In this document: one piece after another, positions 324-28,492 of the stretch | Layout of the letters: every line of letters begins with the position of its first letter | How positions within the stretch are numbered: the first letter of the stretch is position 1 | IMG/VR virus record: IMGVR_UViG_3300010352_001565 | Coordinates: 1-51,054 of that record | Origin: a virus | DNA length: 51,054 nt | Strand: one strand, 5' to 3' | Notes under the pieces: generated by a model | The model's input: only the letters and a program-made list of their open reading frames with translations | Database searches by the model: none | What the model was told of the DNA's origin: nothing | Made by a program: the position numbers and the translations under genes

Positions 324-360
324 GAGAGCCTGGGACTAGTTCCCAGGCTCTTTTTGTTTG
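324..360 (+). terminator. Rho-independent terminator
   Basis: GAGAGCCTGGGA-ctagt-TCCCAGGCTCT hairpin followed by TTTTTGTTTG. Confidence 0.75.
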
Positions 361-1388
361 CGGTTCTATCTAGAGTGCCAAACGTTCAACTAAAAGCACC
401 AGCAAAACCAGAAGAGACTCCGAAGAATGAGCACATCTTTCCGGCTACAAAGCTGACTGAGTACGCCATCAGATGGAAGGAGCTCAATAGCAAGGGCCGA
501 CACCGTGAGGCGTCTGAGCTCCTCGAGTACATCATCATCGAATCTACGGCGATGTTCGAACGGCTGGCTCAGTACGAAGACTTTCACCGCACTGTTGACC
601 TTCCAATTCTCGTCGCCGCGGCGCAAGAAAAGGTGGTCAAGTGGCTTCTGCGCTGGAAGCCAAAGAAAGGAAAGCTCTTCACCTGGTTCTCGAAGTGTGC
701 CAAGAACGCGTTCAGGTCTGAAGTGGTAAAGGTGTCTCAGTACCGCAAGCGCTTCCACGTCACTGGTGACAACCTTGAGAAGTTCTACGGGTTCGAGGAA
801 CATGAGGTTGACAAGCACGACGCGGCAAGGCAGGTGCGCAACCGCCTGTCAGAAATTACGTCGAGATGGGGCTCTCCTGAAGAGATCGGATCGCTGCACT
901 TCCTGACCGAATGCATCATCTCTGACACCCACGACAAGCAATCGGCCATAAAGGGCTGCGCTTACGCATACGGAATTCCTATCGATTTAGCCAAGTTTTT
1001 CTACACCTGGTCGCTTGTGTCTCTACGCGACGTCATGTACGATCAGGTCTATGTTCCTTTCACAGAGCAGGACTTGTTCCGCCACCGGTTCAGCTACACC
1101 CACCTCCCAGACCTTCTCAATATCCTAACGTGGGACCAACTGCGCCGACTCATTGTTACTCGCGGCGGGATGAGGTTCAAGATCCCCACGATTGCCCAGA
1201 TTGCCCAGCTCAAAGAAGACTACAATACCTTCCGGGAGGTAGAAGCCACGGATAAAGATCCTGACTCTATCGCCGCCGTCGCGAAGAATCGAAAGAGAAC
1301 TCCGCGCACAGCGCAGGAAGCTTATGAATCCATGGTCGAAACTTTGAATCCTGACCGCTCTGGAGAATTTCAGGTGTACGAGGATTGA
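354..1388 (+). CDS. gp55-like late sigma factor (sigma-70 region 2-like). The true start is uncertain.
   Basis: TEYAIRWKELNSKG and LFTWFSKCAKNAFRSEVVK resemble T4 gp55 (LQAIIDWKTELANNKD; ITQACFNAFVQRIKK) and the sigma-70 region 2.2-2.3 pattern. The gene sits directly after the terminator. The track start is TTG, and no ATG precedes the conserved region. Confidence 0.5.
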   Translation: MFAVLSRVPNVQLKAPAKPEETPKNEHIFPATKLTEYAIRWKELNSKGRHREASELLEYIIIESTAMFERLAQYEDFHRTVDLPILVAAAQEKVVKWLLRWKPKKGKLFTWFSKCAKNAFRSEVVKVSQYRKRFHVTGDNLEKFYGFEEHEVDKHDAARQVRNRLSEITSRWGSPEEIGSLHFLTECIISDTHDKQSAIKGCAYAYGIPIDLAKFFYTWSLVSLRDVMYDQVYVPFTEQDLFRHRFSYTHLPDLLNILTWDQLRRLIVTRGGMRFKIPTIAQIAQLKEDYNTFREVEATDKDPDSIAAVAKNRKRTPRTAQEAYESMVETLNPDRSGEFQVYED

Positions 1389-1405
1389 TGCGCCTGCCAT
1401 CACCG

Positions 1406-1465
1406 AAATAAATTTACACTTTTTTGCAAAAAAGTGTTTACTTTATATTCACGTACGGTTAGATT
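1406..1465 (+). promoter_or_regulatory. T4-early-type promoter region: AAATAAAT upstream element, a 22-bp perfect palindrome, a GTTTAC -35 at 1436-1441 and TAGATT at 1460-1465.
   Basis: It shares the AAATAAAT-(T)TTACA head with the promoters at 14281, 28492 and 35614. ACACTTTTTTGCAAAAAAGTGT at 1416-1437 is a perfect inverted repeat overlapping the -35. Confidence 0.45.
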
Positions 1466-1483
1466 GTCCATGTTGGTCAAACA

Positions 1484-1505
1484 AAATTTTCGTCAAATTT
1501 TCGTC
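1484..1505 (+). repeat. Tandem direct repeat AAATTTTCGTC x2 ending 4 nt before the ATG at 1510
   Basis: Exact 11-mer duplication read in the sequence. Its position suggests a translational or transcriptional operator. Confidence 0.6.
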
Positions 1506-1509
1506 CTAT

Positions 1510-3021
1510 ATGGCCCAAACTATTACGGAGTTGCTAACCCCGCGTCCAGGTAGCTCGCTCTTCCTCGTATTCAAGGACCCCCACCATCGTCCCCCAGTCT
1601 TAGATGAGATGATGGAAGACATCAATCACGTCATCACGTCTATCGCGACGAGATACACCGATACGAGCTGTCCTCAGCTCCACTTCGAAGACCTCGTCGC
1701 TGAGGGACGGTTCAAGCTCGCAGAGATCATCGACAAAGGCCATCTCAGCCGCCTTCCAAACCGCGTCGAATTCTTCAAATTTTTCAAGACAGCGGTGAAC
1801 AACCACATCAAGGGGTTGGTTCACCGACACAGGTTCACGGTAAAACGCACGGGTCACCGACCTCCTCCTAAAGAAGACCGCTTCAACTTTAATCCAGACA
1901 GCCATGCTGAGTCAGGAAAACCAGTAGAGATCAGCCTTGATGACCCTGATTCACACCTGCAGATAAGCGACAGCGACATCGAGAGCTTCTCTGGAGGCGG
2001 AGGAGTCGGAGATAGCGATCTTCTGGAAGAGATAGAGCAGATCCTTAGTCCGATCGAAAAGCTTGTCATGCGCCAAATGATTGAGCCCAACCCAGAAGCG
2101 CTGACATTTGCCATGGTTGAGTCGCACATGGGGAAGAAACCGAGTTCTGTTAAAATCAAAGTCAGGTATCAGCACATGGCTGATGGTCTCGGTATTGGAA
2201 TTGACCAGTTCACCAAGATCCAAGAGTCAATTAAAACAAAGGTTAGCGAGTTTATGCAACAATCTCAAGCGTCACCAGACGCCATCAAATACAACGTGGC
2301 AATTTCTCAGCTCTCTGAGCTGTTTGGCGTTCAGATTCCTCGCTCGATTGACAAGCTAGTGATTCGCCGACTGCTCACGATCGCCGCACGCGATCAGTTT
2401 GAGAAGGTGAACGCTGACGTTCGAGAGATGCTGGCGACTGTCGGAGCAAAAGCTCCCGATGCGAAAGGTAGCATCCTCTCGTGCTACGGAGTCCTCTACC
2501 AGCGCGGCCACAAAATATGCAGTACGTGCGGAATGCTTGAGTCGTGCAAGACTGAAGCGGCTAACGTGGGTCTCGGAGAGATCACGCTGTCGCCAAAGCT
2601 TCTTGGCACAAAGCAAACGCGAATCCCTATCCTGGTTGCGAGACAACAGCCCAAGCTCCAAGAAGAGCAGAGCAGCATTCCTGCTCCTGACATCTCGTCC
2701 ATCAAAGACGACGGCGCTCCCCTCTCCAGCGAGCGCGACGACGAAATCTTTAATTTCCTCTCAGAGAATTTTCGTCAGGTCAAATACGCGAACGAACCTT
2801 ATTTCAGGCACAAGGAGCTCCCTCCAAGCAAGAAGGTCAAATACATCTTTTGGTTCCATCGCGTCAGCGGAGAACCTATGCAGCTTCGATTCTGCAACCC
2901 TCCTGCCACCATTATCGGGCGCCTTGAAAAGCGCAAGAATGGGTATTATCTTCCAAGCGCCACTCCTGCAAAGGACGCCGCTGAACTGATCAACCTACAC
3001 GCAACTGCCACATTCAAATGA
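1510..3021 (+). CDS. Second gp55-like sigma-region-2 protein, with a ~300-aa C-terminal extension containing a Cys cluster (CYGVLYQRGHKICSTCGMLESC).
   Basis: DLVAEGRFKLAEIIDKGHLSRLPNRVEFFKFFKTAVNNHIKGLV matches the sigma-70 region 2 pattern DLIQEGNIGL..KFD..RG.RFSTYATWWIRQAI. It is paralogous to the 354..1388 product. Confidence 0.55.
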   Translation: MAQTITELLTPRPGSSLFLVFKDPHHRPPVLDEMMEDINHVITSIATRYTDTSCPQLHFEDLVAEGRFKLAEIIDKGHLSRLPNRVEFFKFFKTAVNNHIKGLVHRHRFTVKRTGHRPPPKEDRFNFNPDSHAESGKPVEISLDDPDSHLQISDSDIESFSGGGGVGDSDLLEEIEQILSPIEKLVMRQMIEPNPEALTFAMVESHMGKKPSSVKIKVRYQHMADGLGIGIDQFTKIQESIKTKVSEFMQQSQASPDAIKYNVAISQLSELFGVQIPRSIDKLVIRRLLTIAARDQFEKVNADVREMLATVGAKAPDAKGSILSCYGVLYQRGHKICSTCGMLESCKTEAANVGLGEITLSPKLLGTKQTRIPILVARQQPKLQEEQSSIPAPDISSIKDDGAPLSSERDDEIFNFLSENFRQVKYANEPYFRHKELPPSKKVKYIFWFHRVSGEPMQLRFCNPPATIIGRLEKRKNGYYLPSATPAKDAAELINLHATATFK

Positions 3022-3308
3022 AATCTGAGACAGCCCTAAGAGAGGTCGGATTCTTCAAGCCGATAGACGCGGTCCTTGCGGCGATCATATCGCTCGCGGT
3101 CATCACAGCCTTCGTGCTCATGATCTGCGGCGCGAAGTGGTCTAGCCTTGCGGTGGCCGTTGCTTGCATAATCGTGACGCAGCTCTGGATTGTGTCACTG
3201 GTTTACAGGTGCAATTGGTACGTGATCAAGGTGTGGGCAGACGTTAAGATGATGCCCGCTGATGCTGCGAAACTGGCCGTCGGCTTTATCCAGCGAGGAG
3301 GAGAGTGA
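3018..3308 (+). CDS. Small two-TM membrane protein
   Basis: There are two long hydrophobic segments (AVLAAIISLAVITAFVLMICG; LAVAVACIIVTQLWIVSLVY). The ATGA start overlaps the stop of the upstream gene. Confidence 0.45.
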   Translation: MKSETALREVGFFKPIDAVLAAIISLAVITAFVLMICGAKWSSLAVAVACIIVTQLWIVSLVYRCNWYVIKVWADVKMMPADAAKLAVGFIQRGGE

Positions 3309-3997
3309 AAGATCTCTTTTTAGAGCGCGTCGCAGTTAGCATAGCGGATGCCGCTCGCGAATACTCTGGACTGTCTGTATTTTCAGATCCTGACATGGCG
3401 CGTCGCTGCCAGGTTGCGATGGGAAACCGTCAAGACATCAGCGACGACGCCCTGTCAGATCTAAATCTCGCTTTCGCGCCAAGAACTCCTCAAATAGCGC
3501 GGCAAGGCAGGTTGCTTTCGTGCTTCTGGAAAACCTATCCGTTCGCGCTTTCAAACGCACTCAGCAGACTGCTTGTCAATCCTCCATCTGACATCAACCC
3601 TGGAGAAGGATTTTCAATGACTCTTAAGACCCAGTCGTGGGTTGAAGGAATTCATGGTGCGTGCATATTTAACAGAGAGCTCACACCAATAGAGGTAGTT
3701 TCAATACCAGGGGCGTTCTCGTCTTTTTTCGACGACGTTACTGTTTTTTGGGACTACGGATTTGGAGAGGATTGGTTCCTCGGAACTAGCGTGGTTGTGG
3801 ACCGAATTATGCCAGGGTCAACGGTGACTCTTGTTCGACCGAGCGCGCATCACAACACCTGGATCGGTTGGAGTGGAATCGACCTGTCGTTTAAAAGACT
3901 CCTAGCGAGCATCAACAGCAAGTACAAGCTTCGCGAGCTGTCCGTGAACACGGTCGGAAACATCGAAGTTGCCATACTTGGAGTTGAAGCAAAATGA
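3305..3997 (+). CDS. Hypothetical protein
   Basis: 230-aa ORF with a GTG start overlapping the upstream stop and an ATGA junction to the next gene. No recognisable motif. Confidence 0.4.
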   Translation: MKDLFLERVAVSIADAAREYSGLSVFSDPDMARRCQVAMGNRQDISDDALSDLNLAFAPRTPQIARQGRLLSCFWKTYPFALSNALSRLLVNPPSDINPGEGFSMTLKTQSWVEGIHGACIFNRELTPIEVVSIPGAFSSFFDDVTVFWDYGFGEDWFLGTSVVVDRIMPGSTVTLVRPSAHHNTWIGWSGIDLSFKRLLASINSKYKLRELSVNTVGNIEVAILGVEAK

Positions 3998-5727
3998 GAC
4001 TTGGAGATTCTGGAGAAAGTGTACGTCAGCTGCAACAGTGCCTTAACCTCATAGGTGAAAGGGTCCCAGTGTCGGGACACTACTGCCAGCGGACAAAAGC
4101 GGCAGTAATGAGGTTCCAGCAGGCGAACGGGCTTCAGCAGGACGGCATTGTTTCTCAGAAGATATGTGACATGATGGTTCGACAGGCAGACACTCATCGC
4201 CTGAACCCTCCTGTCCGCGTGGAGCCGACGCCTGAAAAGAGGGAAGAAATGGGACGAGGCGTCTGGTCTGAATTCTCCCTGGATGGCCTTCCTGGCCTCC
4301 AGATTGTCATTACGGCTCACAACGCTGGCCCCTGGATAACCGATTGCCTCCTGAGCGTAAAACGCGCCATGCGTCATTTAAAGAGCGGGTGGAAAGTCCT
4401 GGTGGCTGATGACTCCAGCACGGATCACACGTACGCTCTCGTTTCTGAGCTTAATGGCCAATTTCCATCCCTGACTATAAAACGCTTTCCAAAATCTCGC
4501 AGCGTTGGCGCGGCAAGAAACAAGGCCATCAGCATGGCCATGGGCGACTCGACCAGAGAGTTTCCTGCCATCTGCATGGTTGACGCTGACGACACGCTGT
4601 CTGAGGACCACGGCACTCTGCTTCGCGCGATGGTAGACTCTGGAAGCCTTGCGGTCTTTGGCGACTATTTCAAAGGAAACGAACTCGTCATCGCCGCTCC
4701 TGAAAATCAGGTCCGAGGGAACATCAAATGTGGCGCGGTAATGTTCCACCACAGCCTCATTCCAGGAAACGGAGCTCTGTTTCGCGAAGACTTAGAGATC
4801 AACGAAGAAGCTGCTTTGTGGATGTCGTGGTTTAAGCGCGAGATCAACATGAAGGCCTGTCCTGGAACAGTGGTCTACAACTATAACATTCACGATGGGT
4901 CGGCGTCGAACCCGCTGGATTTGCAGTTTAAAGAGGCTGCGCTTAAAAAGTGGGCCTCGATAAGAACGTCCATCATGGACGCAGGAACTTCAATTTGCGA
5001 GCCTCTCGTGTCTTGCTTGATGCTGACCGGAAAATGCCCAGAACGGTTGCCGTTGGCCCGCGTCGCCATTCGCTGCTTTCTCGATCAGACGTGGCACAAC
5101 AAGCAGCTGGTGATTATCAATCACGGGGACACCCCTCTATCAACAGGAGATCCACGCGTTGTCGAAGTGATGACGACAAAAGGACCTGATGTTTCTCTTG
5201 GCGATTTGAGAAACATGAGCATCGACGCCGCCAGCGGAGAATGGTGCGTGCAGTGGGATGACGACGACTGGCACCACCCTACGCGCATTGCCCAGCAGAT
5301 GAAGGAAGCCAGGCATGACGCTCTGGTGACCTATCTCTGGCAGATCAGGTTGAACCTGGTCACCGGCTCGGCGTTTTATGACAAGATGGAAGGAGGTCAG
5401 CACATGTCGGTGCTATTCCACAGGTCAGTGGCTCACCGCTATCTAAAGCTTGAACGAGCAGAGGACACCGCTTTTGTAAAGAGCTTTAGCAGAATTATCG
5501 CAATTGATAACTCCATTCTAAACCCGTTCACAGACCCACTTCAGTACGTCAGGACTTACCACGGAAGAAACATCTGGGATGCATCACACATTATGCGCGG
5601 AAGCGACCAGAAGAACGTTGACCACCCCGCTGAGATGAAGCTGACGGAGTACCACGCCGACAAGGTGCGTGGTATTATTGAAACCTACCAGATCCAGCCA
5701 GGTTACACGGCTGGAACGAATGTGTAG
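3994..5727 (+). CDS. Peptidoglycan-binding domain fused to two GT-A (family 2-like) glycosyltransferase domains
   Basis: N-terminal GDSGESVRQLQQCLNLIG...QDGIVSQKICDMM fits the PG_binding_1 pattern. VITAHNAGPWITDCLLS...VLVADDSSTDHT...GAARNKAI...DADD is a GT2 signature. A second GT-like unit follows (VSCLMLTGKCPERL...WDDDDWHHP). Confidence 0.7.
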   Translation: MRLGDSGESVRQLQQCLNLIGERVPVSGHYCQRTKAAVMRFQQANGLQQDGIVSQKICDMMVRQADTHRLNPPVRVEPTPEKREEMGRGVWSEFSLDGLPGLQIVITAHNAGPWITDCLLSVKRAMRHLKSGWKVLVADDSSTDHTYALVSELNGQFPSLTIKRFPKSRSVGAARNKAISMAMGDSTREFPAICMVDADDTLSEDHGTLLRAMVDSGSLAVFGDYFKGNELVIAAPENQVRGNIKCGAVMFHHSLIPGNGALFREDLEINEEAALWMSWFKREINMKACPGTVVYNYNIHDGSASNPLDLQFKEAALKKWASIRTSIMDAGTSICEPLVSCLMLTGKCPERLPLARVAIRCFLDQTWHNKQLVIINHGDTPLSTGDPRVVEVMTTKGPDVSLGDLRNMSIDAASGEWCVQWDDDDWHHPTRIAQQMKEARHDALVTYLWQIRLNLVTGSAFYDKMEGGQHMSVLFHRSVAHRYLKLERAEDTAFVKSFSRIIAIDNSILNPFTDPLQYVRTYHGRNIWDASHIMRGSDQKNVDHPAEMKLTEYHADKVRGIIETYQIQPGYTAGTNV

Positions 5728-6587
5728 CGGTTAAGCGCCGTCGTGCTGATTCCCTCACCATCTCTTCCACCCGCGACTAGAGGTGTCTCTAAGCTAAATT
5801 TACGGTAAGGATTAGTAGTCGCGTAGAGAGGACCTACTTGAGACATCACCATTGACGCAATGGCGTCGGCGCGGCCTCGTTCAGGTCCTTGGAGAGACGT
5901 TTCGACTTCTTGGTGCGCAAGAAATTTATGGTCGACATCGACACACAGCACGTCTGATCCTTCAAACTTCAGCAAACCTGCCATGCGAGCGCGGTGAGTG
6001 TAGTCGCAGTGCTCTTCTCCAAACTTACCGAAGCGGGTGTCAAAGTAGCCGATTCGGTCAACCAGGTCGCGCGTGATTGAGATGGCGATTCCGGTCATTC
6101 GAGAAAGTATCTTGACAGTGTACCCATTCGACCTCGCAGATCTCCATCGATATGAGTCAGACGTGAAGTCGCAAAAGCAAAACATTCCAATTCCAAGGTC
6201 AGCGTGTGCTTTTCGATAGAAATCCTCGAAAGGACCACGAACCTCGATGTCATCGTTTATTATCACGAGGTGATCCGCTCTAATATGGCGCATCCACGCA
6301 ATCGCTTTGTTGGACTGAGCTGCCACACCGAGGTTTCTCCTTCCCATGAAAACTGAAATGTTCGGAAGCCACCCTGTGTACTGATCACTTTCGATGGAGT
6401 CAGCAAATCCTGACTTGACCTTTGAACCGCGAGTCAGCAGCGACTCGGTCTCATCCATTCCACCGCAGTCCTCAAAGACGGCCACGGGTGTTTTTCCGCA
6501 GTGGTCTTTGAGGCCTTTTAGGCAGGTTGCGAGTGATTCGACGCGGTTATATGTTAAAACGGCGATGGCTGACTTTGCACTGGTCAT
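5703..6587 (-). CDS. Glycosyltransferase family 2-like
   Basis: IAVLTYNRVESLATCLKGL...VFEDCGG...VIINDDIEV is a GT-A N-terminal signature. Its 3' end overlaps the previous gene by 25 nt (convergent). Confidence 0.65.
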   Translation of the reverse strand: MTSAKSAIAVLTYNRVESLATCLKGLKDHCGKTPVAVFEDCGGMDETESLLTRGSKVKSGFADSIESDQYTGWLPNISVFMGRRNLGVAAQSNKAIAWMRHIRADHLVIINDDIEVRGPFEDFYRKAHADLGIGMFCFCDFTSDSYRWRSARSNGYTVKILSRMTGIAISITRDLVDRIGYFDTRFGKFGEEHCDYTHRARMAGLLKFEGSDVLCVDVDHKFLAHQEVETSLQGPERGRADAIASMVMSQVGPLYATTNPYRKFSLETPLVAGGRDGEGISTTALNRYTFVPAV

Positions 6588-6623
6588 GGAGTGTAGAACT
6601 GACCGCTGTCCTGTAGCTAGGCT

Positions 6624-7316
6624 GTGAATAACGTTTCTAGAATAATCGGAGAAATGACATCGGCAAGCGGAGTTCCAGCTGTTGACGGACCTCCTATCGG
6701 AGTCGCGTCTAGCAAGCGCTTCAGCTTTCGCCGACGCAAACCAGCTGGTAACGCTGGCAAGGTCATTGGTGAAGATGGAAATGACGAGCCGATTATTCCT
6801 AAAGATGCCCGCGAGATTGAACTTGAGGTTGAAGTCGGAAGCCCTAATCAGAGCACCCAGGATAACAGCAGCGACAACGATCCTGGAGACCTCATTAACC
6901 CATCCTCCGCGCTCGTAGCCCCTGACGTTACACCCGACGCAATGAAGCCCATTGACCCATCAATGGTGCCTCCTCCGAAACAAGATCCAGCCATCAGCGT
7001 CGTGCTTGGTCAGCAGCCTCAGACTCCGGCTTCTGCGACTCCAGTCCCTGCTCCTCAGCCTTCTGCTCCTGCTCCTGCGGTAATCACTCCTCAAAATCCA
7101 GTCGAGTCTATCAACTGGAGATCCATGGTTGGAAAGTCAGTCAGCGAATCGGCGCCTGCAAGCCTTCCAGGAATCCCTACCATCGCGTCACTCGGAGAGA
7201 GCCAGTCTGCCATTCCAACTGGAGACGCAGCCCTTAACGCGAATGCTCCGATGCCCGCACCTGTTCAGGCCCAGCCTGGTAAGGTGATCGATGCATTCAG
7301 GAGATTTGTGGGTTGA
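6624..7316 (+). CDS. Intrinsically disordered Pro/Ala/Ser-rich protein
   Basis: Low-complexity PASATPVPAPQPSAPAPA stretches. The start may be at the internal MTSASG. Confidence 0.35.
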   Translation: MNNVSRIIGEMTSASGVPAVDGPPIGVASSKRFSFRRRKPAGNAGKVIGEDGNDEPIIPKDAREIELEVEVGSPNQSTQDNSSDNDPGDLINPSSALVAPDVTPDAMKPIDPSMVPPPKQDPAISVVLGQQPQTPASATPVPAPQPSAPAPAVITPQNPVESINWRSMVGKSVSESAPASLPGIPTIASLGESQSAIPTGDAALNANAPMPAPVQAQPGKVIDAFRRFVG

Positions 7317-7600
7317 TAGAGAAGACCTACATTGTAAGCCCGACAACTACCCCTCAGGGGCTCCACGTCGAAATAGAGCGCGAGCCCTTCATGGAGTGGT
7401 TCACGTTCAAGCTGTCTAACGGGCACACCGAAGACCTTGAGCCAGATGAAGCTAGGACGTGGTTCAGAGATCGCGGCGCAAACATGGAAGCCGTTGAAAA
7501 GGCACTAGATTACGCATGGAACTTCTATCACGCGGAGGTTTACATCGCGAACCCGAAAGAGCCTACGTTTAGCAATCCGCGCTTGCGCCCGTCCATCTAG
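7313..7600 (+). CDS. Hypothetical small protein
   Basis: 95-aa ORF coupled to the upstream gene by start/stop overlap. Confidence 0.4.
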   Translation: MIEKTYIVSPTTTPQGLHVEIEREPFMEWFTFKLSNGHTEDLEPDEARTWFRDRGANMEAVEKALDYAWNFYHAEVYIANPKEPTFSNPRLRPSI

Positions 7601-7691
7601 CTCGCCATAACGGTAGAGATTGATCATCAACCCTCTGAGGCGTGAATGGGGAGTGCCCCTTAGCTGAACGTGGTAAACAAACAGTTATCGC

Positions 7692-9200
7692 ATGTCGAAA
7701 ATGCTGCTTGAGGATAATTTCGGTACGTTCGTTCCAGATCGTTCAAAGATGGTAACAGAAAGTACCCCCTCGGGTAAGCAGCTTACCAGAATTCCGGGTC
7801 TTTTCTCACTGTGCGATACGCTGAACGGAAACAATCGCCGATATTCGCGCAAAGTGTGGGAAAAGAATCTCGCCACTGGATCCACGCTTCAGTCCGCCAT
7901 CTCTGCTAATGCCGCTTTCGGTTTGCTTGAACACCCGAAAGACGGACACGTCGACCTTCTCAGCCCCATCGCTATCTCCACCACGCAGGTTTCACTGAAT
8001 GAAAAAGGTGAAGTTGTCGGTGAGATTACAGTGCTCGGTACCCCTGAGGGACAACGCCTTATTGCTCTGATCGAGGGTGGATGGAATCCGACGGTGTCAA
8101 GCCGCGGGTTTGGATCCTTGGTTCGCGGGACTGACGGCGTCGACGAGGTTCAAGAAGATTATGTCTGCGAAGGATGGGACGTCGTGCTGAAACCGAGCTT
8201 TGTGAAGGCCATCTTCAATGCTCACTCGAAACCTACCTCTGAATCCACGGCTCCCGTGGCTCCTCCTGCAGCACCAAGTTTGAGGGAGTCGAAGCCCTCT
8301 TCTAGCCCATCGGCTAGCCAAAACACCCAAGTAAATCAGACCAAAAAAGTCATGAGTGAGTCAATAAAGCAGCGCTTAGCGGCGCTCCGAGCAGTCGATT
8401 GCTCGAAGATGGATCCCGCCCGTTTCGCTGGTGGGCTGGCCGAAATGAACTCGCTTCACCAGGAGGTAGCCAACTATCTTTCTGAAGATGCGAAGAGGTC
8501 GTGGGAAGCTCAGCAGCTCCACACCGATATTTCTGCCTTGGAACAGACTTGGACGCAGGCGGCGAAAGCTCCCTCTGTTCAAGCCACGAAGCTCTCTGAA
8601 GACCGGAGCAAACTCCTTCAGGTTACCTCTGCAGTTGTTGCAGCGGCTGATAAGTTCCGCACCCGTCTCGGTGAAGCTATTAACACGATCGCCGGTCAAA
8701 AGCAGCTGGTCTCAGCTGCTGTTACCCGCGGTAAATTCTGGCGCAACAAATGCGAGCAGCTTGAGTCCAGGCTGGCCGTCCTTGAACAGCGCTACGATGT
8801 GGCAACTATCGCCTTGGACAAGCTGACTGAGCGCTATCACACCGATACCGTTCCCCTTGCTCGGCGCGTTATTCAGCTCGAATTCGCTGAACAGGCCAAA
8901 ACCCCTGAGATTAAGAAAGCCCTCTCTGAAGCGACCCGCCTCAAGCACATCGTCGCCATCCGTGAGAGCATTTCGAAGCCCGCTGCTCCTGCAGCTGCGG
9001 CTACTCCGGCTGCTGCGCCTGCTCCCGCTCCTGCTACACCGGCCGCTACCCCAGCTCCTGCAGCTCCCGCTCCCGCGGCGCCTGCTCCTGCTGCTCCTGC
9101 GGCGAACGAGAACATCAACACGCAACCTTTCGCAGGTGCGCGATCCATTTCTGAGTCAGTCGCTGTTGCTCAGCGCCTGTCACGGACAACCGCCCAATAA
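7692..9200 (+). CDS. Prohead core protease (T4 gp21-like) fused to a C-terminal coiled-coil scaffold-like domain
   Basis: RRYSRKVWEK..LLEHPKDGH..SSRGFGS..DYVCEGWDVVLKPSF matches T4 gp21 RRTYPKEIWEA..GELDHPADR..SSRGTGS..DFDFTGFDLVATPS. The C-terminal 300 aa are helical, ending in an (AAPAP)n tail. The gene lies immediately upstream of the MCP gene. Confidence 0.75.
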   Translation: MSKMLLEDNFGTFVPDRSKMVTESTPSGKQLTRIPGLFSLCDTLNGNNRRYSRKVWEKNLATGSTLQSAISANAAFGLLEHPKDGHVDLLSPIAISTTQVSLNEKGEVVGEITVLGTPEGQRLIALIEGGWNPTVSSRGFGSLVRGTDGVDEVQEDYVCEGWDVVLKPSFVKAIFNAHSKPTSESTAPVAPPAAPSLRESKPSSSPSASQNTQVNQTKKVMSESIKQRLAALRAVDCSKMDPARFAGGLAEMNSLHQEVANYLSEDAKRSWEAQQLHTDISALEQTWTQAAKAPSVQATKLSEDRSKLLQVTSAVVAAADKFRTRLGEAINTIAGQKQLVSAAVTRGKFWRNKCEQLESRLAVLEQRYDVATIALDKLTERYHTDTVPLARRVIQLEFAEQAKTPEIKKALSEATRLKHIVAIRESISKPAAPAAAATPAAAPAPAPATPAATPAPAAPAPAAPAPAAPAANENINTQPFAGARSISESVAVAQRLSRTTAQ

Positions 9201-9238
9201 GGCGTCAACATAAACAACACACACTGAGAAAATAGTAT

Positions 9239-10714
9239 ATGGTAATACTTGATTCTGTTGGGAGGCCTACTTTAGCCACGCCAGGCGGTAGCATCTCCCG
9301 TTTCACCGAAGTGCTCGAACTCGGCTGGCGCCTTGCGGAAACTCCCGTCGGAGTTCCTGAGGGCAGCTCCAGCAAAGGTCTCTGGGAATCCCGAGGCTGG
9401 AAAGAGTTCGTGCAGCACATGCCCGAATACAAGAGACCCCTTGCCGCGATCATGCTGGAAAACTGCCGCGCGCGCTTCGGCCGTATGGACGAAGTCACCC
9501 GCACGCAGAACCTCGGCACGTTCGACAAGTGGATCTTCCCGGTCATCGCAAACATGTCCGAAAACGACGTGATCGACCAGTTGGTTGCCCTGCAGCCCAT
9601 GGCTGGCCCCGTTTCGCAGATCGTGTTCATGGACATCGTGACTGGTCAGCGCAAAGGCCGCATTCCTGCTGGCGCTCCCATGTGGCGCGCTCTGCAAGGT
9701 GCTGTTGACCGCTACGACGACGCCGATGAGCTGATCACCGGTGAGGTCATGTCCAACACCATCCAGACCAACACGGCTACCAACAACCTCGAGTGGTTCC
9801 CCATTCGCCCTGGCACTGTCCAGGTGACTGTCGGTAACGATGTGGCGGTTGACGATGGCAACGGCGGCTTCCAAGCCAGTGGCAAGATCCTCGCGACTTC
9901 GACCATCAACTACGTCACCGGCGAACTCGTCGTGAGGACGTCTGCTGTGGCCGATGGAACTGAAGTTGACGTGACCTACGCGTACAACTCTGAAGGCAAC
10001 CAGAAGATCCAGAACTATGACATCAAGCTGTCCAGCACCCCGGTGACTGCGAAGGTCTTGAAGCTCAAAGCCACCTGGACCGAGGAAGCCGATCAGAACC
10101 TTCAGGCGATGTACAACATCAAGGCCGAACCGGTCTTGCTGAACGCCCTGACCAACGCGCTGCAATACCAGAAGCATCGCCAGGTCATCGCTGACATCCG
10201 CGCCCGCGCTGATGCCGGTTTCGTTGTCTGGGACGCCACGCCTCCGGCTAACGTCAACTACCAGACCCACAAGTTCAGCATCATCGACGCCTTCGAGACT
10301 GCCTCGAACTTCATCTACAGCTCGACCAACATGGTCGCTGGTAACTGGATCATCTGCGGTTTGCAAGCTGCGACCGTGGTTGTGACACTTCCTCAGTTCG
10401 TGCCCAAGAACAATCGCACGAACATGCAGGGCATCACCTACCTGGGTGACCTCGGCAACAAGAAAGTGTTCGCTGACCCGCACTTCCCGAACAACGAATT
10501 CCTCGTTGGTCACAAGGGCGATCAGTTCCTGACCACCGGCTACGTTCTGGCTGAATACCAGAAGCTGTACACCACGCCCGACATCCAGTTGCCCGACTTC
10601 ATCCACCAACGTGGCTTTGCGACCTCGTTCGCGAAGAAAGTCGTGAATTCGAAGATGTACTGCCGCGGTATCATCCGCAACAGTCCCTCGAGCTTCGGCA
10701 CCGTGATCGGTTAA
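9239..10714 (+). CDS. Major capsid protein, T4 gp23-like
   Basis: QLVALQPMAGPVSQIVFMDIVTGQRKG matches T4 gp23 LIAFDICGVQPMNSPTGQVFALRAVYGKD. The gene is followed by a strong terminator and sits downstream of the protease/scaffold gene. Confidence 0.8.
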   Translation: MVILDSVGRPTLATPGGSISRFTEVLELGWRLAETPVGVPEGSSSKGLWESRGWKEFVQHMPEYKRPLAAIMLENCRARFGRMDEVTRTQNLGTFDKWIFPVIANMSENDVIDQLVALQPMAGPVSQIVFMDIVTGQRKGRIPAGAPMWRALQGAVDRYDDADELITGEVMSNTIQTNTATNNLEWFPIRPGTVQVTVGNDVAVDDGNGGFQASGKILATSTINYVTGELVVRTSAVADGTEVDVTYAYNSEGNQKIQNYDIKLSSTPVTAKVLKLKATWTEEADQNLQAMYNIKAEPVLLNALTNALQYQKHRQVIADIRARADAGFVVWDATPPANVNYQTHKFSIIDAFETASNFIYSSTNMVAGNWIICGLQAATVVVTLPQFVPKNNRTNMQGITYLGDLGNKKVFADPHFPNNEFLVGHKGDQFLTTGYVLAEYQKLYTTPDIQLPDFIHQRGFATSFAKKVVNSKMYCRGIIRNSPSSFGTVIG

Positions 10715-10754
10715 GCGCCGCAGAATAGCCGATAACAATTCACAGGCCCTCGGA

Positions 10755-10782
10755 AACGAGGGCCTTTTTTGTTATCATTTTC
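10755..10782 (+). terminator. Rho-independent terminator after the MCP gene
   Basis: GGCCCTCG-gaaa-CGAGGGCC followed by TTTTTTG. Confidence 0.85.
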
Positions 10783-10796
10783 GTGTTCTATCCCGT

Positions 10797-11198
10797 ATGA
10801 ATATCTCTCGACGCGAAGCTATTTCATCTCTGGCTGCGGTTGGAGGCGCTCTGATTGCCTTCCCCGCTACGCTCGCTTGCAAGCTTAAGGCCGCTCCAAA
10901 GCCTGAGGAGCAAAAGCGGAGGGTGGACATCTACCGCCTCAAGCACATCATCCATGACTCAGTCACCATCGAGACCCACTTAGACAAGCCATTCGCAGAT
11001 ATTCAGAAGGGCGACGTTATTGTTGTCAGATCTGATGACGCGTGCAACGGCGCTTACTGGTACGCCAATTCCACCTTCAACGAAAAAGGAGTGCGCGGAA
11101 TAGAAGGGTTTCAGATCGACGTTCCGAATGTTCCGTGCTGGGCCGCGCACATCCAGTGGCACCGCTTGGAGAGATGGGCCGAAGAGCACGCGGTGTAA
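10797..11198 (+). CDS. Putative Tat-exported lipoprotein
   Basis: N-terminus MNISRREAISSLAAVGGALIAFPATLAC has a twin-arginine motif, an h-region and an L-A-C lipobox-like cysteine. Confidence 0.45.
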   Translation: MNISRREAISSLAAVGGALIAFPATLACKLKAAPKPEEQKRRVDIYRLKHIIHDSVTIETHLDKPFADIQKGDVIVVRSDDACNGAYWYANSTFNEKGVRGIEGFQIDVPNVPCWAAHIQWHRLERWAEEHAV

Positions 11199-11297
11199 TT
11201 AGAGCGTGAAACGGCATCCATTAGCAGACTTCTTGGACGGAGATCCATTCAGGCGGCAATGGACAAGAAAATGGCTGAGTACGCGGGTTCGCAATAG

Positions 11298-11744
11298 ATG
11301 ACAGCTAGCGCAATAATCGAAGCTCTCGTTCCTGACAAAGGAAGCGTCCTTAAGATGAACGACGATGGCTTGTTCGAGCCATGCGCAGTCCAGGTATCTC
11401 AAGGTCCTGAGCGCGTTATCGCCGTAGCGACCCAGATGGCCGGAGTTACCCTGCTTGGAAGGCCGTCTGACATCCACGCAACCCTTTCTGAAGGATACTG
11501 GGACTTTCTTGAGCAGACAGACCCAGAAGGTTTTGCCAAACTCCAGGTCAACTTTGAGTGGGCGCACCACGGCTGGTTCACCAACAAAGGTCGTTTTGTC
11601 GACAACGAAGAAGCTGCAAAGCTGCACAACACAGACGTCGATGCCTTCGCAGAAGAAAATCGCGAAAATACCATCCTTCACCCAGAACACTCTGACTACC
11701 GCTTCGAGTACGGACCCGGAGGCAAGCTTCGTCGGAAGCGCTAG
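11298..11744 (+). CDS. Hypothetical acidic protein
   Basis: 148-aa ORF. It was chosen over the overlapping antisense ORF 11199..11690 because its composition is more protein-like. Confidence 0.35.
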   Translation: MTASAIIEALVPDKGSVLKMNDDGLFEPCAVQVSQGPERVIAVATQMAGVTLLGRPSDIHATLSEGYWDFLEQTDPEGFAKLQVNFEWAHHGWFTNKGRFVDNEEAAKLHNTDVDAFAEENRENTILHPEHSDYRFEYGPGGKLRRKR

Positions 11745-11751
11745 TTAGCAT

Positions 11752-13020
11752 ATGCGCAGCTTGCGTGCCTTAAGGGGACCTCTTATGAAGAGTCCCGCGA
11801 TGATCGACCCTAGCGGAGTCGTGTATTCTGGAGAAGCCGTCTGGGACGCTCTTGACAAGAACCCCGAACTCGCCGCTGAGATTGAGGATGCGGGTCTGTA
11901 CGGAAACTACCACGACGTCTTCGCGGCCGTCACTGGGAGGGACATCGATTCCTATTTGCGAGATGGGTGGATTAGGTGGGCAGTTGGAGATCCGAGCAAA
12001 GACGAGGTATTTGTTCAGAGCTCACAAATCTCGCACCGGCAGCGGGCAGTTCTTGACCAATTCGCAGAAGATAACCCGTCTGTGAAGGTGACTTTCATCG
12101 GCTTGGTTCGAGAAGGGTGCGACGACACTTCAAAGCTTGGACTACCTCCAGAAGCTCGGACCTTCTCTAAGCTCAACTCCAGGAATGGAGGATTGGGTCC
12201 TAGGAAGCCCAAGGCCTACATTGACATGGTTGCAGCCATCACCAATCAAAAGAGCCGTAAGCATGGTTTCTGCAACAAGGATGGTGGCCAGAAGGTTCAG
12301 CATGCAATAAAAGAGTCCTTGGGATACATTGGAATGTTCTCAGGAGGAGGAATGGTCGTTCACGCCATTACAGCGGAGCAGGTTGACGACCATTCGTATG
12401 ACCACAGCGATGTTGGAAAAGCACTTGGAGCTACTGGACGATTCCGCTACAACCCCAACAGACCCGATGTTGTCGTGTGGAGCGACGAGCCGTCTAAGGA
12501 GCAGATGGAGGAAGTTGAAGACTTTCTGGCGCGGCGAGGGTTTAATCCATCAAAGCACAAAGTGTGGGCATGGGCCGACGGTGGACAAACACGGATTATT
12601 TCTAAAGAAGGTTCCCAAGATAGTTATGGCATGAATAATGAGTCTCTCGCAAGCAAACTGGTTGAGGAATTGATTGGAGACGAAAACGGGAAAAGCGGAA
12701 TTGAGATCGACGCCTTTATCCAGGAGCTGAGATCTGGAGGGTACGACCCTGAGCACGTTCGCGAGATGATCTCCGCGGCAACCAGCGCAAAGCGCTTGCT
12801 TGGCGGAGGCATTCAAGTCGTCACCAGCAACGAGCTTCAGGGAGCGGACATGATGGAGATGCTTGACCAGCTCGAAGCCCGCAGCGATCGCGCTGAAGCC
12901 GGCCAAGGTTTCGAGCGCGTCTTCCAATCTGGAGGAGCCCCATTCGCGCTTGAGTACATCACTCAGGGTGAGGACAACTTCACTGTTGTTTTCTTCACGA
13001 CCGCAGATCACCAGAAGTAA
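11752..13020 (+). CDS. Hypothetical protein (422 aa)
   Basis: Long ORF with balanced composition and no recognised motif. Confidence 0.45.
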   Translation: MRSLRALRGPLMKSPAMIDPSGVVYSGEAVWDALDKNPELAAEIEDAGLYGNYHDVFAAVTGRDIDSYLRDGWIRWAVGDPSKDEVFVQSSQISHRQRAVLDQFAEDNPSVKVTFIGLVREGCDDTSKLGLPPEARTFSKLNSRNGGLGPRKPKAYIDMVAAITNQKSRKHGFCNKDGGQKVQHAIKESLGYIGMFSGGGMVVHAITAEQVDDHSYDHSDVGKALGATGRFRYNPNRPDVVVWSDEPSKEQMEEVEDFLARRGFNPSKHKVWAWADGGQTRIISKEGSQDSYGMNNESLASKLVEELIGDENGKSGIEIDAFIQELRSGGYDPEHVREMISAATSAKRLLGGGIQVVTSNELQGADMMEMLDQLEARSDRAEAGQGFERVFQSGGAPFALEYITQGEDNFTVVFFTTADHQK

Positions 13021-13748
13021 ACCGGGGTGTCGTCAGCCTGGAACTTATTGCCGACGAACCACCCCCGTTCTGGATCAGGCCCTGGTATGGGTTTCCCGTT
13101 GGCACGGTTGAATGTGTCGTGGGCAAAGTGGTCATTTTTGAAGTGGCTTTCCCAGAAGGTGTCAAGGAAGTTGAAGTCTCCCCAAAATGCGTCTTGCTTC
13201 CAATCTTTAAGCCTCTGCTCAAACTCTGGAATGCGGTTGCACAAAGCACCCCACATCCCAGCCATGATGTGCTGAACGTGGTTTGGGTGGTCTCGCATGA
13301 CGTGGTAAGTCTTTCCAGACGCCAGCCACTCGCGCACAGCTTCAGCCTCTCTTTTTGTCAAGCGAGCGTCAGCGTCGCGTACTATCGCCACGCTGACTGA
13401 CGGATCAAACAAAGGCTCGAAGCGCCAGCGCATCCCTGAGCAGTCCACGTTGTCTGGCTTAATGATGATCTCTGCTCCAGAGTCGGAGAGTGCCTTCACA
13501 ACGCACTCAGGCACAGTTGAATCGACGTAAAACCGGCAGACAAAATTTGGATAGACGCTCTTTGCCAGCTCTGCGTTTTTAAGCGCGCCAACGGTGTACA
13601 TTGGCGCGCTTCCCCACAGGCTGTATGAAATGACCGACTTCACAGGGTTGAAAACGGGATTGCGTGGCCGGTGTACCCAGGCGCACTCCAGTAGCACGAT
13701 CCATTTAGCCTTGCGCGGCGTCCTCCGCTGCGATGGTAGTGATGACAC
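13008..13748 (-). CDS. Putative nucleotide-sugar transferase-like protein. The GTG start sits directly after an in-frame TAG.
   Basis: ISYSLWGSAPMY..CRFYVDSTVPECV..DADAR segments resemble GT-A type transferases. It overlaps the upstream ORF by 109 nt in the -1 frame. Confidence 0.35.
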   Translation of the reverse strand: MSSLPSQRRTPRKAKWIVLLECAWVHRPRNPVFNPVKSVISYSLWGSAPMYTVGALKNAELAKSVYPNFVCRFYVDSTVPECVVKALSDSGAEIIIKPDNVDCSGMRWRFEPLFDPSVSVAIVRDADARLTKREAEAVREWLASGKTYHVMRDHPNHVQHIMAGMWGALCNRIPEFEQRLKDWKQDAFWGDFNFLDTFWESHFKNDHFAHDTFNRANGKPIPGPDPERGWFVGNKFQADDTPVYFW

Positions 13749-14269
13749 CTAACAGAGTGGCAAGGGTTGCTCACGGTTAAACCTGCTTCTACGGCTTTTT
13801 GCGCCAGATAGGTGTCGCATCCGTCAATTCCAAGTATGATGTCATCTTGCATTTTGCAGATGGGAGCTTTGAACACCCACGTGTCTTGCGACCACTGATT
13901 TTGAAGCTGGCCATCTTCATTTACACGAGTGATGCAAAACAGATGGTTGTCCCAGCGGCTCGGAGGAAGCGACGCTAGCAGCTCCATTGTGCTGTCGTAC
14001 TTGATGTCTGTATTTGAAACCACGACGAACTCTCCGAGCAATGACTTATTGGCGAATTCGAAGTAGGCTCCGTATGTGGGACGGTCACTGACGCTAACAA
14101 ACTCCAGCTTCGGGTGCTCAATAGGTGGGAGGTACCCCCTCTCGCAGAAAATAAAGACGCGGCTGAAAAATGGCTGGTCAAGATTGTGCTTGATGCAGTG
14201 CACCAGCTCTTCTTCGCGCGGTTCATTCTTGAAAAACGTGGTCAGCAAGATCATGAGTTGGTAGAACAA
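13640..14269 (-). CDS. Hypothetical protein, possible glycosyltransferase N-terminal module
   Basis: FFKNEPREEELVHCIKHNL...VSNTDIKY...GIDGCDTY. The last ~36 residues look like out-of-frame readthrough. Confidence 0.35.
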   Translation of the reverse strand: MFYQLMILLTTFFKNEPREEELVHCIKHNLDQPFFSRVFIFCERGYLPPIEHPKLEFVSVSDRPTYGAYFEFANKSLLGEFVVVSNTDIKYDSTMELLASLPPSRWDNHLFCITRVNEDGQLQNQWSQDTWVFKAPICKMQDDIILGIDGCDTYLAQKAVEAGLTVSNPCHSVRCHHYHRSGGRRARLNGSCYWSAPGYTGHAIPFSTL

Positions 14270-28275: not shown

Positions 28276-28280
28276 ATTAT

Positions 28281-28448
28281 TTAAAAAGAAGAGTTGCCAC
28301 TTTGAACGACCCGAACAAGCAGAGCGCTGCTCCAACTGAGGCTATCAGCGCACCAGCAGAATCCGGTGAGAGATAGAAGCACAAGCGATAGTATTACAGT
28401 GAAATAGTCGTCGAGTTTATCCACGACGTTGCATTTGTTCGCGTTCAT
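28281..28448 (-). CDS. Small membrane protein (55 aa), first gene after the promoter
   Basis: ATG 7 nt downstream of the TATAGT -10. Hydrophobic core FTVILSLVLLSLTGFCWC. The TAA stop is 5 nt before the MCAIIG start. It is below the 60-aa ORF-track cutoff. Confidence 0.4.
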   Translation of the reverse strand: MNANKCNVVDKLDDYFTVILSLVLLSLTGFCWCADSLSWSSALLVRVVQSGNSSF

Positions 28449-28454
28449 ATCAAT

Positions 28455-28492
28455 ACTATATCACGAAACAAGAATTTGTAAACATTTATTTT
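28455..28492 (-). promoter_or_regulatory. T4-early-type promoter (minus strand): AAATAAAT, TGTTTACA, 16-nt spacer, TATAGT
   Basis: Minus-strand reading AAATAAATGTTTACAAATTCTTGTTTCGTGATATAGT. It differs from the 14281-14317 module at only 3 positions. Confidence 0.55.

Follow-up and report, generated by a model that had tools for sequence, protein, structure and literature searches.

Background

Phage glycosyltransferases (GTs) are known to act in DNA glucosylation, in seroconversion by temperate phages and, as recognised recently, in the building of glycan shields on virions. Here we analyse a 51,054-nucleotide (nt) stretch of viral DNA (IMG/VR record IMGVR_UViG_3300010352_001565, positions 1 to 51,054; the window below), and in particular a gene for a protein of 577 amino acids (aa), in which a peptidoglycan (PG)-binding module of the endolysin type, PG_binding_1, is fused to two GT-A domains of the GT2 kind. 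The gene belongs to a group of four (3018-6587), which a preliminary description had singled out as a glycosyltransferase island beside a supposed gene 55, and which we interpret as part of an operon for glycan building, conserved and evolving fast, in an uncultured lineage of distantly T4-like phages. Phage GTs as such are well known, and multi-GT genes of environmental phages are annotated in public databases. In the texts returned by a full-text literature search no fusion of PG_binding_1 with glycosyltransferases in phage was found described; we also did not find described an endolysin-type PG-binding module fused to tandem GT-A domains and kept lineage-wide, an operon that joins such a gene to a small transmembrane (TM) protein and sigma-like genes, or the decay of the first GT domain.

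Several described systems resemble this locus in part. K4CP, the chondroitin polymerase of E. coli K4 (2z86), and PmHS2, the heparosan synthase of Pasteurella (8vh7), are, like the 577-aa protein, soluble and built of two tandem GT2-type GT-A domains, each with a DxD motif. Their identity to the phage enzyme is 12-14% and the root-mean-square deviation about 20 Å, the domain arrangement not being superposable; the K4CP profile match covers one domain only (E 2e-9), while Foldseek aligns both. Neither polymerase has a PG-binding module, and no KpsMT-type exporter lies nearby in the phage loci examined. TarP, from a prophage of S. aureus, and GtrB are likewise phage GT2 enzymes of the GT-A fold, which change glycopolymers on the surface of the host; our structural and profile matches include TarP and TarS, and a GtrB-like PHROG match is weak (E 0.0048). 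TarP and GtrB are single-domain enzymes carried by temperate phages. GtrA has four TM segments, and GtrB, which works with GtrA and GtrC, has C-terminal TM helices; the island does not reproduce such a gtrABC cassette, as its GT has no TM segment, no GT-C family match was obtained and its 96-aa membrane protein has two TM segments only.

Endolysins of the phiKZ gp144 type share with the phage enzyme the N-terminal PG_binding_1 domain and the lack of a signal peptide, and the phage operon has a small two-TM protein upstream. They differ in carrying a muralytic domain where the phage enzyme has a GT pair; gene order and PG-binding module are those of a holin-endolysin cassette, and the catalytic domains are GT2. 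GT2 bears no relation to the GT-B-type folds of the T4 alpha- and beta-glucosyltransferases, and no T4 GT is found among the 50 top-ranked PDB structural matches; like the GT-A enzymes of Pyle et al., the T4 enzymes are products of large lytic phages. Clusters of several GT-A genes with methyltransferase-type domains are also reported for mycobacteriophages Che8 (gp108-110) and Corndog (gp38) (Freeman et al. 2023, cited by PMC12363180 and PMC11256854). These systems differ in belonging to siphoviruses of Actinobacteria, in lying at the right genome end and in having neither PG-binding domain nor TM partner. PBCV-1 A064R and the multi-GT proteins of giant viruses likewise contain viral GT-A domains in series, with or without methyltransferases; they differ in acting on capsid or fibril proteins of eukaryotic viruses, and none is reported with PG_binding_1.

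Domain architecture of the 577-aa protein

The protein is divided as follows.

3994-4203, + strand: PG_binding_1 domain, residues 1-70 (PF01471, E 1.7e-12), with no preceding signal peptide
4204-4293, + strand: flexible acidic linker, residues 71-100, with predicted local distance difference test score (pLDDT) below 50 at residues 72-86 and variable length in the alignment
4294-4983, + strand: N-terminal GT-A/GT2 domain, residues ~101-330 (best PF00535 stretch 104-224)
4984-5727, + strand: C-terminal GT-A/GT2 domain, residues ~331-577, the predicted catalytic core, conserved

The PG_binding_1 domain scores 47.7 bits with PF01471 against a cut-off of 23 (residues 6-57), and its profile matches the phiKZ gp144 endolysin (3e-10) and endolysin families of PHROG (down to 2.6e-11). 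PF00535 matches two stretches of the protein with 92.1 bits (cut-off 23.3; E 4.8e-26), and NCBIfam models of the WcaA type match both halves, the C-terminal GT match covering residues 336-446. The N-terminal GT carries DDSSTD at residues 139-144 (nt 4408-4425) and DADD at residues 197-200 (nt 4582-4593); the C-terminal GT carries NHGD, WDDDDW at residues 421-426, within which DDDD occupies 422-425 (nt 5257-5268), and REDT. In the AlphaFold2 model (20 homologues; pLDDT 85) a three-helix bundle, with helices at residues 8-19, 32-44 and 55-70, is followed by a disordered linker (72-86) and two Rossmann-like GT-A domains. The isoelectric point (pI) of the PG-binding domain is 9.1; the GT domains are mildly acidic (pI 6.3-6.4).

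PDB profile matches of the N-terminal GT are K4CP, TagF, PmHS2, TarP and TarS. Foldseek with the whole model places K4CP (1.8e-17) and PmHS2 (1.4e-15) at the top, followed by the single-domain GT2 enzymes WrtF, TarS, TarP and RmlT. The C-terminal GT modelled alone (pLDDT 82.8) finds PmHS2, 6p61, SpsA, K4CP and TarP at 2e-10 to 1e-7; these are generic GT2 neighbours, the best PDB profile E is 0.033 and NCBIfam scores fall far below the equivalog cut-offs, so no specific function could be assigned to it. In the viral structure library BFVD the top matches are GT2 proteins of Megaviridae and Moumouvirus and long GT proteins of uncultured Caudovirales. Profile score, aspartate motifs and predicted fold thus all place both domains in GT-A/GT2. 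The preliminary description had read the protein as a PG_binding_1 domain with two GT2-like units, and that reading holds, with the motifs where it had put them and with domains that score well above the family cut-off as glycosyltransferases.

No signal peptide and no TM or hydrophobic segment was detected in the 577-aa protein, whose PG_binding_1 domain begins at residue 2; all 19 homologues in the alignment lack an N-terminal extension, and no aligned sequence has a signal peptide. Nor does the protein contain a muralytic signature (lysozyme, amidase, peptidase). Since the domain match and the homologues support it, we favour the start at 3994; in P0001, a JGI gene call of 539 aa, the start is placed too far downstream and the PG-binding domain is lost. 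Because the protein has no export signal, the PG-binding module is predicted to be made in the cytoplasm, as in holin-dependent endolysins. The term "peptidoglycan-anchored" used in the preliminary description therefore calls for a qualification, export signal and TM anchor both being absent.

Conservation across the clade

The same architecture occurs in 21 database proteins with 31-66% identity. We aligned the window protein with 19 homologues (alignment A1, 20 sequences). Almost all of the 71 invariant columns lie in the C-terminal GT, with conserved blocks LGDLRN, WDDDDWHHP (invariant), GQHMS, REDT and YHGxNxW. In the N-terminal GT the aspartate motifs are kept in the window protein and in P0002-P0010, and replaced in P0012-P0022 (by VVH.., MAKD and the like), that is, lost in 10 of the 19 homologues. 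The PG-binding domain is present in all aligned sequences, with L17, G21, Q42 and G51 invariant.

Because the invariant columns cluster in the C-terminal GT while the N-terminal aspartate motifs decay, the C-terminal GT is, as judged from the alignment, the universally conserved catalytic core, and the N-terminal GT, predicted to be catalytic in one sub-clade, probably has a structural role in the other. The word "double" of the preliminary description thus fits the window protein and not the clade as a whole. A bifunctional polymerase was considered as the conserved function and rejected: with the N-terminal GT degenerate in half of the clade, alternating co-polymerisation of the K4CP kind is not what is conserved. 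Searching the INPHARED phage genomes by tblastn with the 577-aa protein returned only four partial matches, to the PG-binding or the N-terminal GT part.

Operon organisation and synteny

The genes in and ahead of the island are these.

354-1388, + strand: conserved 344-aa protein, probably the "gene 55" of the preliminary description; possibly a very remote gp55-like factor, unproven
1510-3021, + strand: conserved 503-aa protein, first gene of the operon, with weak similarity to sigma-70 region 2 and a Cys cluster
3018-3308, + strand: 96-aa protein with two predicted TM segments, its start overlapping the stop of the 503-aa gene
3305-3997, + strand: 230-aa protein, found only in the sub-clade that keeps the N-terminal GT catalytic motifs
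3994-5727, + strand: 577-aa protein, PG_binding_1 and two GT domains
5703-6587, - strand: convergent GT-A glycosyltransferase of 294 aa, its 3' end overlapping the 577-aa gene by 25 nt

Four tightly packed genes, encoding the 503-aa sigma-like, two-TM, 230-aa and 577-aa proteins, stand behind one promoter-like site, and overlapping stop and start codons (ATGA, GTGA, ATGA) join the 96-aa, 230-aa and 577-aa genes. All four open reading frames (ORFs) of 3018-6587 are present as first described, among them the membrane protein, with its two hydrophobic stretches, and the unknown protein, for which no database gave an informative match.

Hydropathy of the 96-aa protein peaks at about residues 17-41 and 44-64. 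It is kept in the clade loci L007, L008 and L010 (21-39% identity; invariant W57, R64, K77 and AA83-84), and in L096 tblastn detects its C-terminal 38 residues (63% identity). It matches no recognised holin family. Orthologues of the 230-aa protein are found in L007 (39-40% identity) and L096 (33%), and none in L008 or L010; Pfam, PHROGs, NCBIfam and PADLOC gave nothing informative for it. Its PDB profile matches were weak, repeated and leucine-rich-repeat-like (4per, E 2e-4), and were judged to be uninformative noise. A PADLOC scan of all island proteins found no match.

The loci of the clade were compared by look-up of neighbours and local tblastn. The conserved order is a GT9-like gene and uvsX further upstream, then the genes of the 344-aa, the 503-aa and the ~100-aa two-TM proteins, the 230-aa gene where present, the PG-binding-GT-GT gene, a variable slot, the convergent GT, a small protein, the protease and the major capsid protein (MCP); the part from the 344-aa sigma-like to the PG-binding-GT-GT gene is found, apart from the 230-aa gene, in all examined relatives. 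The GT9-like protein gives weak WaaC/WaaF matches and nothing by which to tell a heptosyltransferase acting on protein from one acting on lipopolysaccharide (LPS). Among relatives the MCP is 70-78% identical and the PG-binding-GT-GT protein 32-48%, and in distant clade members the N-terminal GT is invisible to tblastn. The slot holds a Sulfotransfer_3 enzyme (E 9e-19) in L007 and a 296-314-aa protein without Pfam match in L008 and L010.

In seven of the eight distinct clade loci the island adjoins the prohead protease and MCP genes. The exception is L096 (IMGVR_UViG_3300045921_000952), where exonuclease and baseplate genes take the place of the head genes. Its orthologue (9002-11914) has 970 aa and consists of PG_binding_1, GT2, GT2 and a GH130-like phosphorylase/mannosyltransferase domain, after which comes a convergent protein that combines Methyltransf_24 (an O-methyltransferase) with GT8 (12030-13463). 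Because L096 keeps the sigma-like genes and the TM protein and loses the head genes, the constant linkage is with the two sigma-like genes and the TM protein and not with the head genes. The fast divergence of the GT protein relative to the adjacent MCP, together with the exchange of tailoring enzymes (sulfo-, methyl-, GH130-like), points to a glycan at the host-virus or virus-environment interface.

The examined loci of the clade are not prophages: they are phage contigs with T4-like head genes. The S77 prohead protease of the window (7692-9200), to which a scaffold-like tail is fused, precedes a gp23-like MCP (9239-10714); further T4-type core genes are those for the tail sheath (31346-33496), a gp5-like hub, an SbcC/gp46-like ATPase and a primase. 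The MCP has at most 30% identity to isolated phages, the majority of ORFs have no Pfam match, ARAGORN finds zero tRNA and no integrase was seen in the 51 kb. On these grounds (core genes, MCP identity, few Pfam matches, no integrase) the source appears to be a very divergent T4-like myovirus of lytic type, represented by metagenomes only. The identical 577-aa protein is found on seven contigs (ENA, JGI and Logan assemblies). The Moraphage lineage (PMC12619734), jumbo phages with predicted Bacteroidota hosts, was considered and dropped, having no link to the window.

Origin of the C-terminal glycosyltransferase family

A profile of the C-terminal domain collects 771 proteins, mostly stand-alone and 210-260 aa long. 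Data with one genome per bacterial or archaeal species contain 433 cellular relatives. The closest belong to Verrucomicrobiota (43-48% identity; Limisphaerales 48%, Chthoniobacter 43-45%), other holders being Balneolaceae/Rhodothermales, Betaproteobacteria, Sphingomonas, Planctomycetota and Actinomycetota; the family also occurs on jumbo-phage and giant-virus contigs. At 12 cellular loci the gene has other GTs (GT2, GT4/GT1), sulfotransferases, Wzi and WecG beside it. In a Chthoniobacteraceae metagenome-assembled genome (L013/L017) the gene is flanked by a sulfotransferase-like gene and by a Mannosyl_trans3+GT9 fusion plus methyltransferases. At 14 further viral loci GTs and sulfotransferases are again the neighbours, a gp23 gene and the capsid gene of a nucleocytoplasmic large DNA virus (NCLDV) appearing one time each; outside the phage clade the family is thus seen at about 5 kb or less from gp23-like and NCLDV capsid genes.

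The stand-alone family repeatedly adjoins sulfotransferases, with GT9-type genes, in bacteria, jumbo phages and the phage clade (L013/L017, L014, L007), so that the combination of core GT, GT9-like gene and sulfotransferase recurs in bacteria and in the phage clade. This repeated neighbourhood hints at a shared sulfated glycan pathway. As the cellular relatives and their neighbours lie in polysaccharide clusters, it appears that the phage took its enzymes from a cellular pathway that makes a polysaccharide or glycoconjugate, possibly a sulfated one. The family itself, with more than 770 homologues and 433 cellular loci, often adjoining sulfotransferases, is uncharacterised.

Regulatory signals

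Three elements delimit the block that contains the island.

324-352, + strand: strong intrinsic terminator-like hairpin closing the upstream unit (12-bp stem with 7 GC pairs, then a T run)
1416-1464, + strand: sigma70-like promoter (TGTTTAC at 1435-1441, 17-nt spacer, TTAGAT), overlapping a palindrome
10744-10765, + strand: strong terminator-like hairpin after the MCP gene (9-bp stem with 7 GC pairs, then T6)

The two hairpins bracket the block 354-10714, and no strong terminator was found between 352 and 10744. The palindrome, a perfect one of 22 bp (ACACTTTTTTGCAAAAAAGTGT, 1416-1437), overlaps the -35 element of the operon promoter and looks like an operator. TGTTTAC has eight copies in the window. 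Seven fall in intergenic DNA, which makes up 7.4% of the window (P = 9e-8), at 1435, 14288, 41199 and 49286 on the + strand and at 28478, 39489 and 7673 on the - strand; the aligned consensus, TGTTTACa-N16-17-TGnTATAgT, is of sigma70 type with an extended -10. The site at 1435 heads the operon 1510-5727, and the others precede genes that carry no structural annotation (14324; 28335 on the - strand; 39482 on the - strand; 41218; 49338). At 14288 and 28478, which share an extended motif of about 30 nt (AAATAAATGTTTACAAATTYYYGTTTCGTGATATAGT), an ATG follows 6-9 nt past the -10 element, which suggests leaderless or very-short-leader mRNAs.

A second motif, (G/C)ATAAC, stands upstream of the protease gene, of the one that follows the MCP gene, and of the sheath, hub and primase genes (7606, 10731, 31323, 41150, 43941, 47489), with 12 of 35 copies intergenic (P = 4e-6); GCCGATAACAA is identical at 10731 and 31323. 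We regard it as a candidate late-promoter element, analogous to TATAAATA of T4. Since the operon has the sigma70-like class and the structural genes have (G/C)ATAAC, we infer that the GT operon is probably transcribed by the host RNA polymerase before the late genes.

The convergent glycosyltransferase and the ORFs beyond the capsid gene

The 294-aa ORF scores 22.4 bits with PF00535, 0.9 bit short of the cut-off of 23.3, and matches the PHROG glycosyltransferase family phrog_2456 at 3.1e-16. It has NDD at nt 6249-6257, and its four orthologues (41-53% identity) keep LTYNR, FEDCG, NDD and GEEHCDYT. We therefore treat it as a probable GT-A enzyme, with no CAZy family assigned, in agreement with the third, convergent GT2-like gene of the preliminary description. 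Its only relatives in isolated phages are GT genes of M. abscessus phages: over its full length it is 25% identical to the N-terminal half of phiGD20-1 gp107, the C-terminal half of which is 52% identical to Che8 gp108. The M. abscessus phage cluster has the same right-arm position as the Che8 GT operon, of which gp110 is reported to be essential for capsid glycosylation (PMC12363180). Direct hhalign comparison of alignment A2 with Che8 gp109 and gp110, and of alignment A5 with gp108, detected no homology (E 0.28-0.78; for gp108, at its N-terminus).

Two further ORFs, which had been described as GT-like, lie past the MCP gene.

13640-14269, - strand: 209-aa ORF of an uncharacterised domain family, often fused to GT2 or FkbM methyltransferase
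13008-13643, - strand: 211-aa ORF, putative glycosyltransferase of a ~215-aa family with an RDxDSR motif

The 13008 ORF probably starts at GTG 13643, which overlaps the upstream stop (GTGA) and yields 211 aa instead of 246; public calls start at M50 (197 aa). The re-started N-terminus, MKSVISYSLWG, resembles the MKKVISFSLWG of its family. Single-sequence searches of Pfam, PHROGs, NCBIfam and PDB were empty for the 246-aa and 209-aa ORFs. Among the 2819 representatives of the 209-aa domain family (E ≤ 1e-3), the long ones carry PF00535 or PF05050 beside this domain. The 211-aa family has 299 homologues without Pfam domains, some of which JGI names "protein O-GlcNAc transferase"; its best PDB match, the capsid-glycosylating PBCV-1 A64R, is not significant (E 0.36), and hhalign of the family against two GT alignments was negative. 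Their GT-like character thus finds no direct match to profile hidden Markov models or PDB, and has indirect support, from fusion partners for the 209-aa ORF and from the JGI naming for the 211-aa ORF.

Sigma-like genes

The identification of a gene 55 beside the island was not borne out, as neither 354-1388 nor 1510-3021 has a significant match to a gp55 or sigma model. For the 344-aa protein, which is 43-68% identical in clade relatives and always ahead of the operon, Pfam, PHROG, NCBIfam, PDB and tblastn gave no match. As reference we used T4 gp55, its sequence confirmed against X01804.1, and a five-member gp55 alignment. By hhalign the 344-aa family aligns collinearly with it (residues 22-126 against 9-116, 105 columns), at a non-significant E of 0.19 and a probability of 0.3%; the 503-aa family matches on an unrelated region (E 0.044, also not significant). 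The 503-aa protein, 32-45% identical in all clade loci, has a sub-threshold match to NCBIfam TIGR02937 sigma70-ECF (E 0.007) and no PHROG, Pfam, tblastn or PDB-profile match; tblastn with both sigma-like proteins against INPHARED gave zero matches. The 503-aa protein also has an invariant Cys cluster (C325, C337, C340, C346), which suggests a zinc site, and in L007 an extra Sigma70_r2 protein follows the MCP.

What the enzyme may decorate

We place remodelling of an envelope glycoconjugate first, as a tentative preference held at rather less than an even chance, followed by virion glycosylation, an effector acting on host protein or peptidoglycan precursors and, last, DNA, with the remainder unassigned; the two targets proposed in the preliminary description in place of DNA, envelope and virion, thus remain the two best readings. 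If the envelope is the target, the host RNA polymerase would express the operon ahead of the late genes, and the cytoplasmic enzyme would be recruited to the inner face of the cytoplasmic membrane by the small TM protein, the PG-binding module, or both. There the C-terminal GT would move a sugar from a nucleotide sugar to a membrane-associated envelope precursor, for which undecaprenyl-linked glycan, LPS core and peptidoglycan precursor are candidates, by DxD/metal-dependent and probably inverting GT2 chemistry. The intact N-terminal GT, the convergent GT and the variable tailoring enzymes would extend and decorate the product, which host export machinery would then display on the infected cell; the outcome may be receptor masking, superinfection exclusion or less adsorption of progeny to debris.

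Envelope remodelling ranks first because it accounts for a wall-binding module with a membrane partner, and also for an ancestry in cellular enzymes, rapid evolution and exchangeable tailoring enzymes. It is supported by the operon promoter, whose class is common to non-structural genes and unlike the motif of the protease, sheath and hub genes; by the sigma-like and TM gene linkage, which survives in L096 without head genes; and by the conserved, translationally coupled two-TM protein upstream and the PG-binding domain kept across the aligned clade. Several points weigh against it. The acceptor and the promoter timing are both deduced, the latter from sequence motifs; mature peptidoglycan lies across the membrane from where the PG-binding module would be; and no flippase, exporter or lipid-carrier-priming enzyme was seen. 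The described envelope-modifying phage GTs (gtrABC, TarP) are, to our knowledge, all in temperate phages; here the core genes are of the lytic T4 kind, and the 51 kb show no integrase. The position of the island beside protease and MCP in seven of eight loci, the GT-like ORFs just past the MCP and the relationship of the convergent GT to a mycobacteriophage cluster in the position of the Che8 operon weigh in the same direction.

These last points are what favours virion glycosylation, a reading we hold to be somewhat unlikely, in which head or tail proteins still in the cytoplasm would receive O-linked glycans from the GTs, ahead of assembly or in its course, giving a lineage-variable glycan coat. 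It has precedents in mycobacteriophages Che8, Corndog and Myrna and in the capsid-glycan enzymes of chloroviruses and mimivirus. The island stands directly upstream of the S77 protease and the gp23-like MCP with no strong terminator from 352 to 10744, the M. abscessus phage clusters to which the convergent GT is related include one linked to Che8 gp108, members of the core GT family lie near gp23-like and NCLDV capsid genes elsewhere, giant-virus multi-GT proteins are among the structural neighbours, and combinations of sugar O-methyltransferase and GT recur (L096). A virion target, however, leaves the PG-binding domain and the TM partner without a role. The sigma70-like operon promoter is not the structural-gene motif, the island of L096 lies apart from head genes, homology to the Che8 gp108 N-terminus, gp109 and gp110 was not detectable, and the MCP has no obvious conserved Ser/Thr-rich acceptor tail. 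The cytoplasmic PG-binding module would make sense if its ligand were a precursor that bears a stem peptide, and an effector that modifies a cytoplasmic host protein, in the manner of glycosylating toxins of the GT-A kind, or cytoplasmic peptidoglycan precursors (UDP-MurNAc-pentapeptide, lipid II), for host takeover or for control of wall synthesis or lysis, has a small probability. The succession of a two-TM and a PG-binding protein recalls a holin-endolysin cassette, the window yielded no endolysin domain, and the promoter is of early type; yet we found no evidence for PG_binding_1 binding cytoplasmic precursors, tailoring enzymes imply an elaborated glycan and not a single inactivating sugar, and toxin GT families are similar only in the common fold. 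Less probable still, a long shot, is the specific proposal that PG_binding_1 reads the stem peptide of UDP-MurNAc-pentapeptide, lipid I or lipid II, and thereby holds the tandem GT beside the small TM protein at the inner face of the membrane, where the phage would add sugars to wall precursors.

The least probable of the readings considered is hypermodification of DNA, in which the GTs would glycosylate hydroxylated pyrimidines for evasion of restriction. The preliminary description had raised it from the position beside gene 55, by analogy with T4; that analogy is positional, without homology, and gene 55 is unconfirmed. What speaks for it is that phage GT-A enzymes with R...DDD...ED motifs glycosylate 5-hydroxymethylcytosine, and GT-B enzymes add heptose (Pyle et al., bioRxiv 10.1101/2023.12.21.572611), while the core domain here carries LGDLRN...WDDDDW...REDT, the clade has a GT9-like gene near uvsX, and an early or middle promoter would fit a replication-coupled role. 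The GTs of such pathways are, according to the same source, usually clustered with methyltransferase/5mYOX or ThyS genes, and DNA glycosylation is disfavoured because base-hydroxylating genes are absent nearby: no ThyS/hydroxymethylase, 5mYOX/TET or C5-methyltransferase was found in the 51-kb window, in the 10 kb on either side of the gene in L001, L007, L008 and L010, or among the 25 most frequent neighbour families of 14 other viral loci with the core GT. Against it stand also the mildly acidic GT domains, the polysaccharide clusters of the cellular relatives, and the sulfotransferase, GH130-like, TM and PG-binding partners, which are without precedent in DNA modification.

Whichever the target, a lineage of large, apparently lytic phages retains a multi-enzyme glycan toolkit as conserved genes. 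An envelope target would mean that lytic phages remodel host surfaces during infection, and a virion target that glycan coats reach from mycobacteriophages to T4-like phages of Gram-negative-type hosts. Glycosylation of wall precursors would amount to a rewriting or blockade of peptidoglycan synthesis by the phage, with superinfection exclusion, protection from lysins of its own or of rivals, or timed lysis as consequences, and would be the first virus intervention in murein synthesis by a glycosyltransferase.

Other features of the window

Between the convergent GT and the protease, 6624-7316 encodes a 230-aa acidic protein in which Pro, Ala and Ser make up 38% of residues; it is not present in L008 and L010. 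The protease (7692-9200) has a long C-terminal tail rich in Ala, Pro and Thr. This protein and the protease tail could be scaffold or core proteins, or possibly glycan acceptors. On the - strand, 28492-28953 encodes an MTES_1575 restriction-endonuclease-like protein, which adjoins a stand-alone class-II glutamine amidotransferase-like protein (27562-28335, - strand; GATase_6, E 1.8e-6) placed behind a promoter of the TGTTTAC class. A scan of 49 further ORFs of the window also identified a Cpn10 (GroES-like) co-chaperonin, a NUDIX hydrolase and a DUF559 protein.

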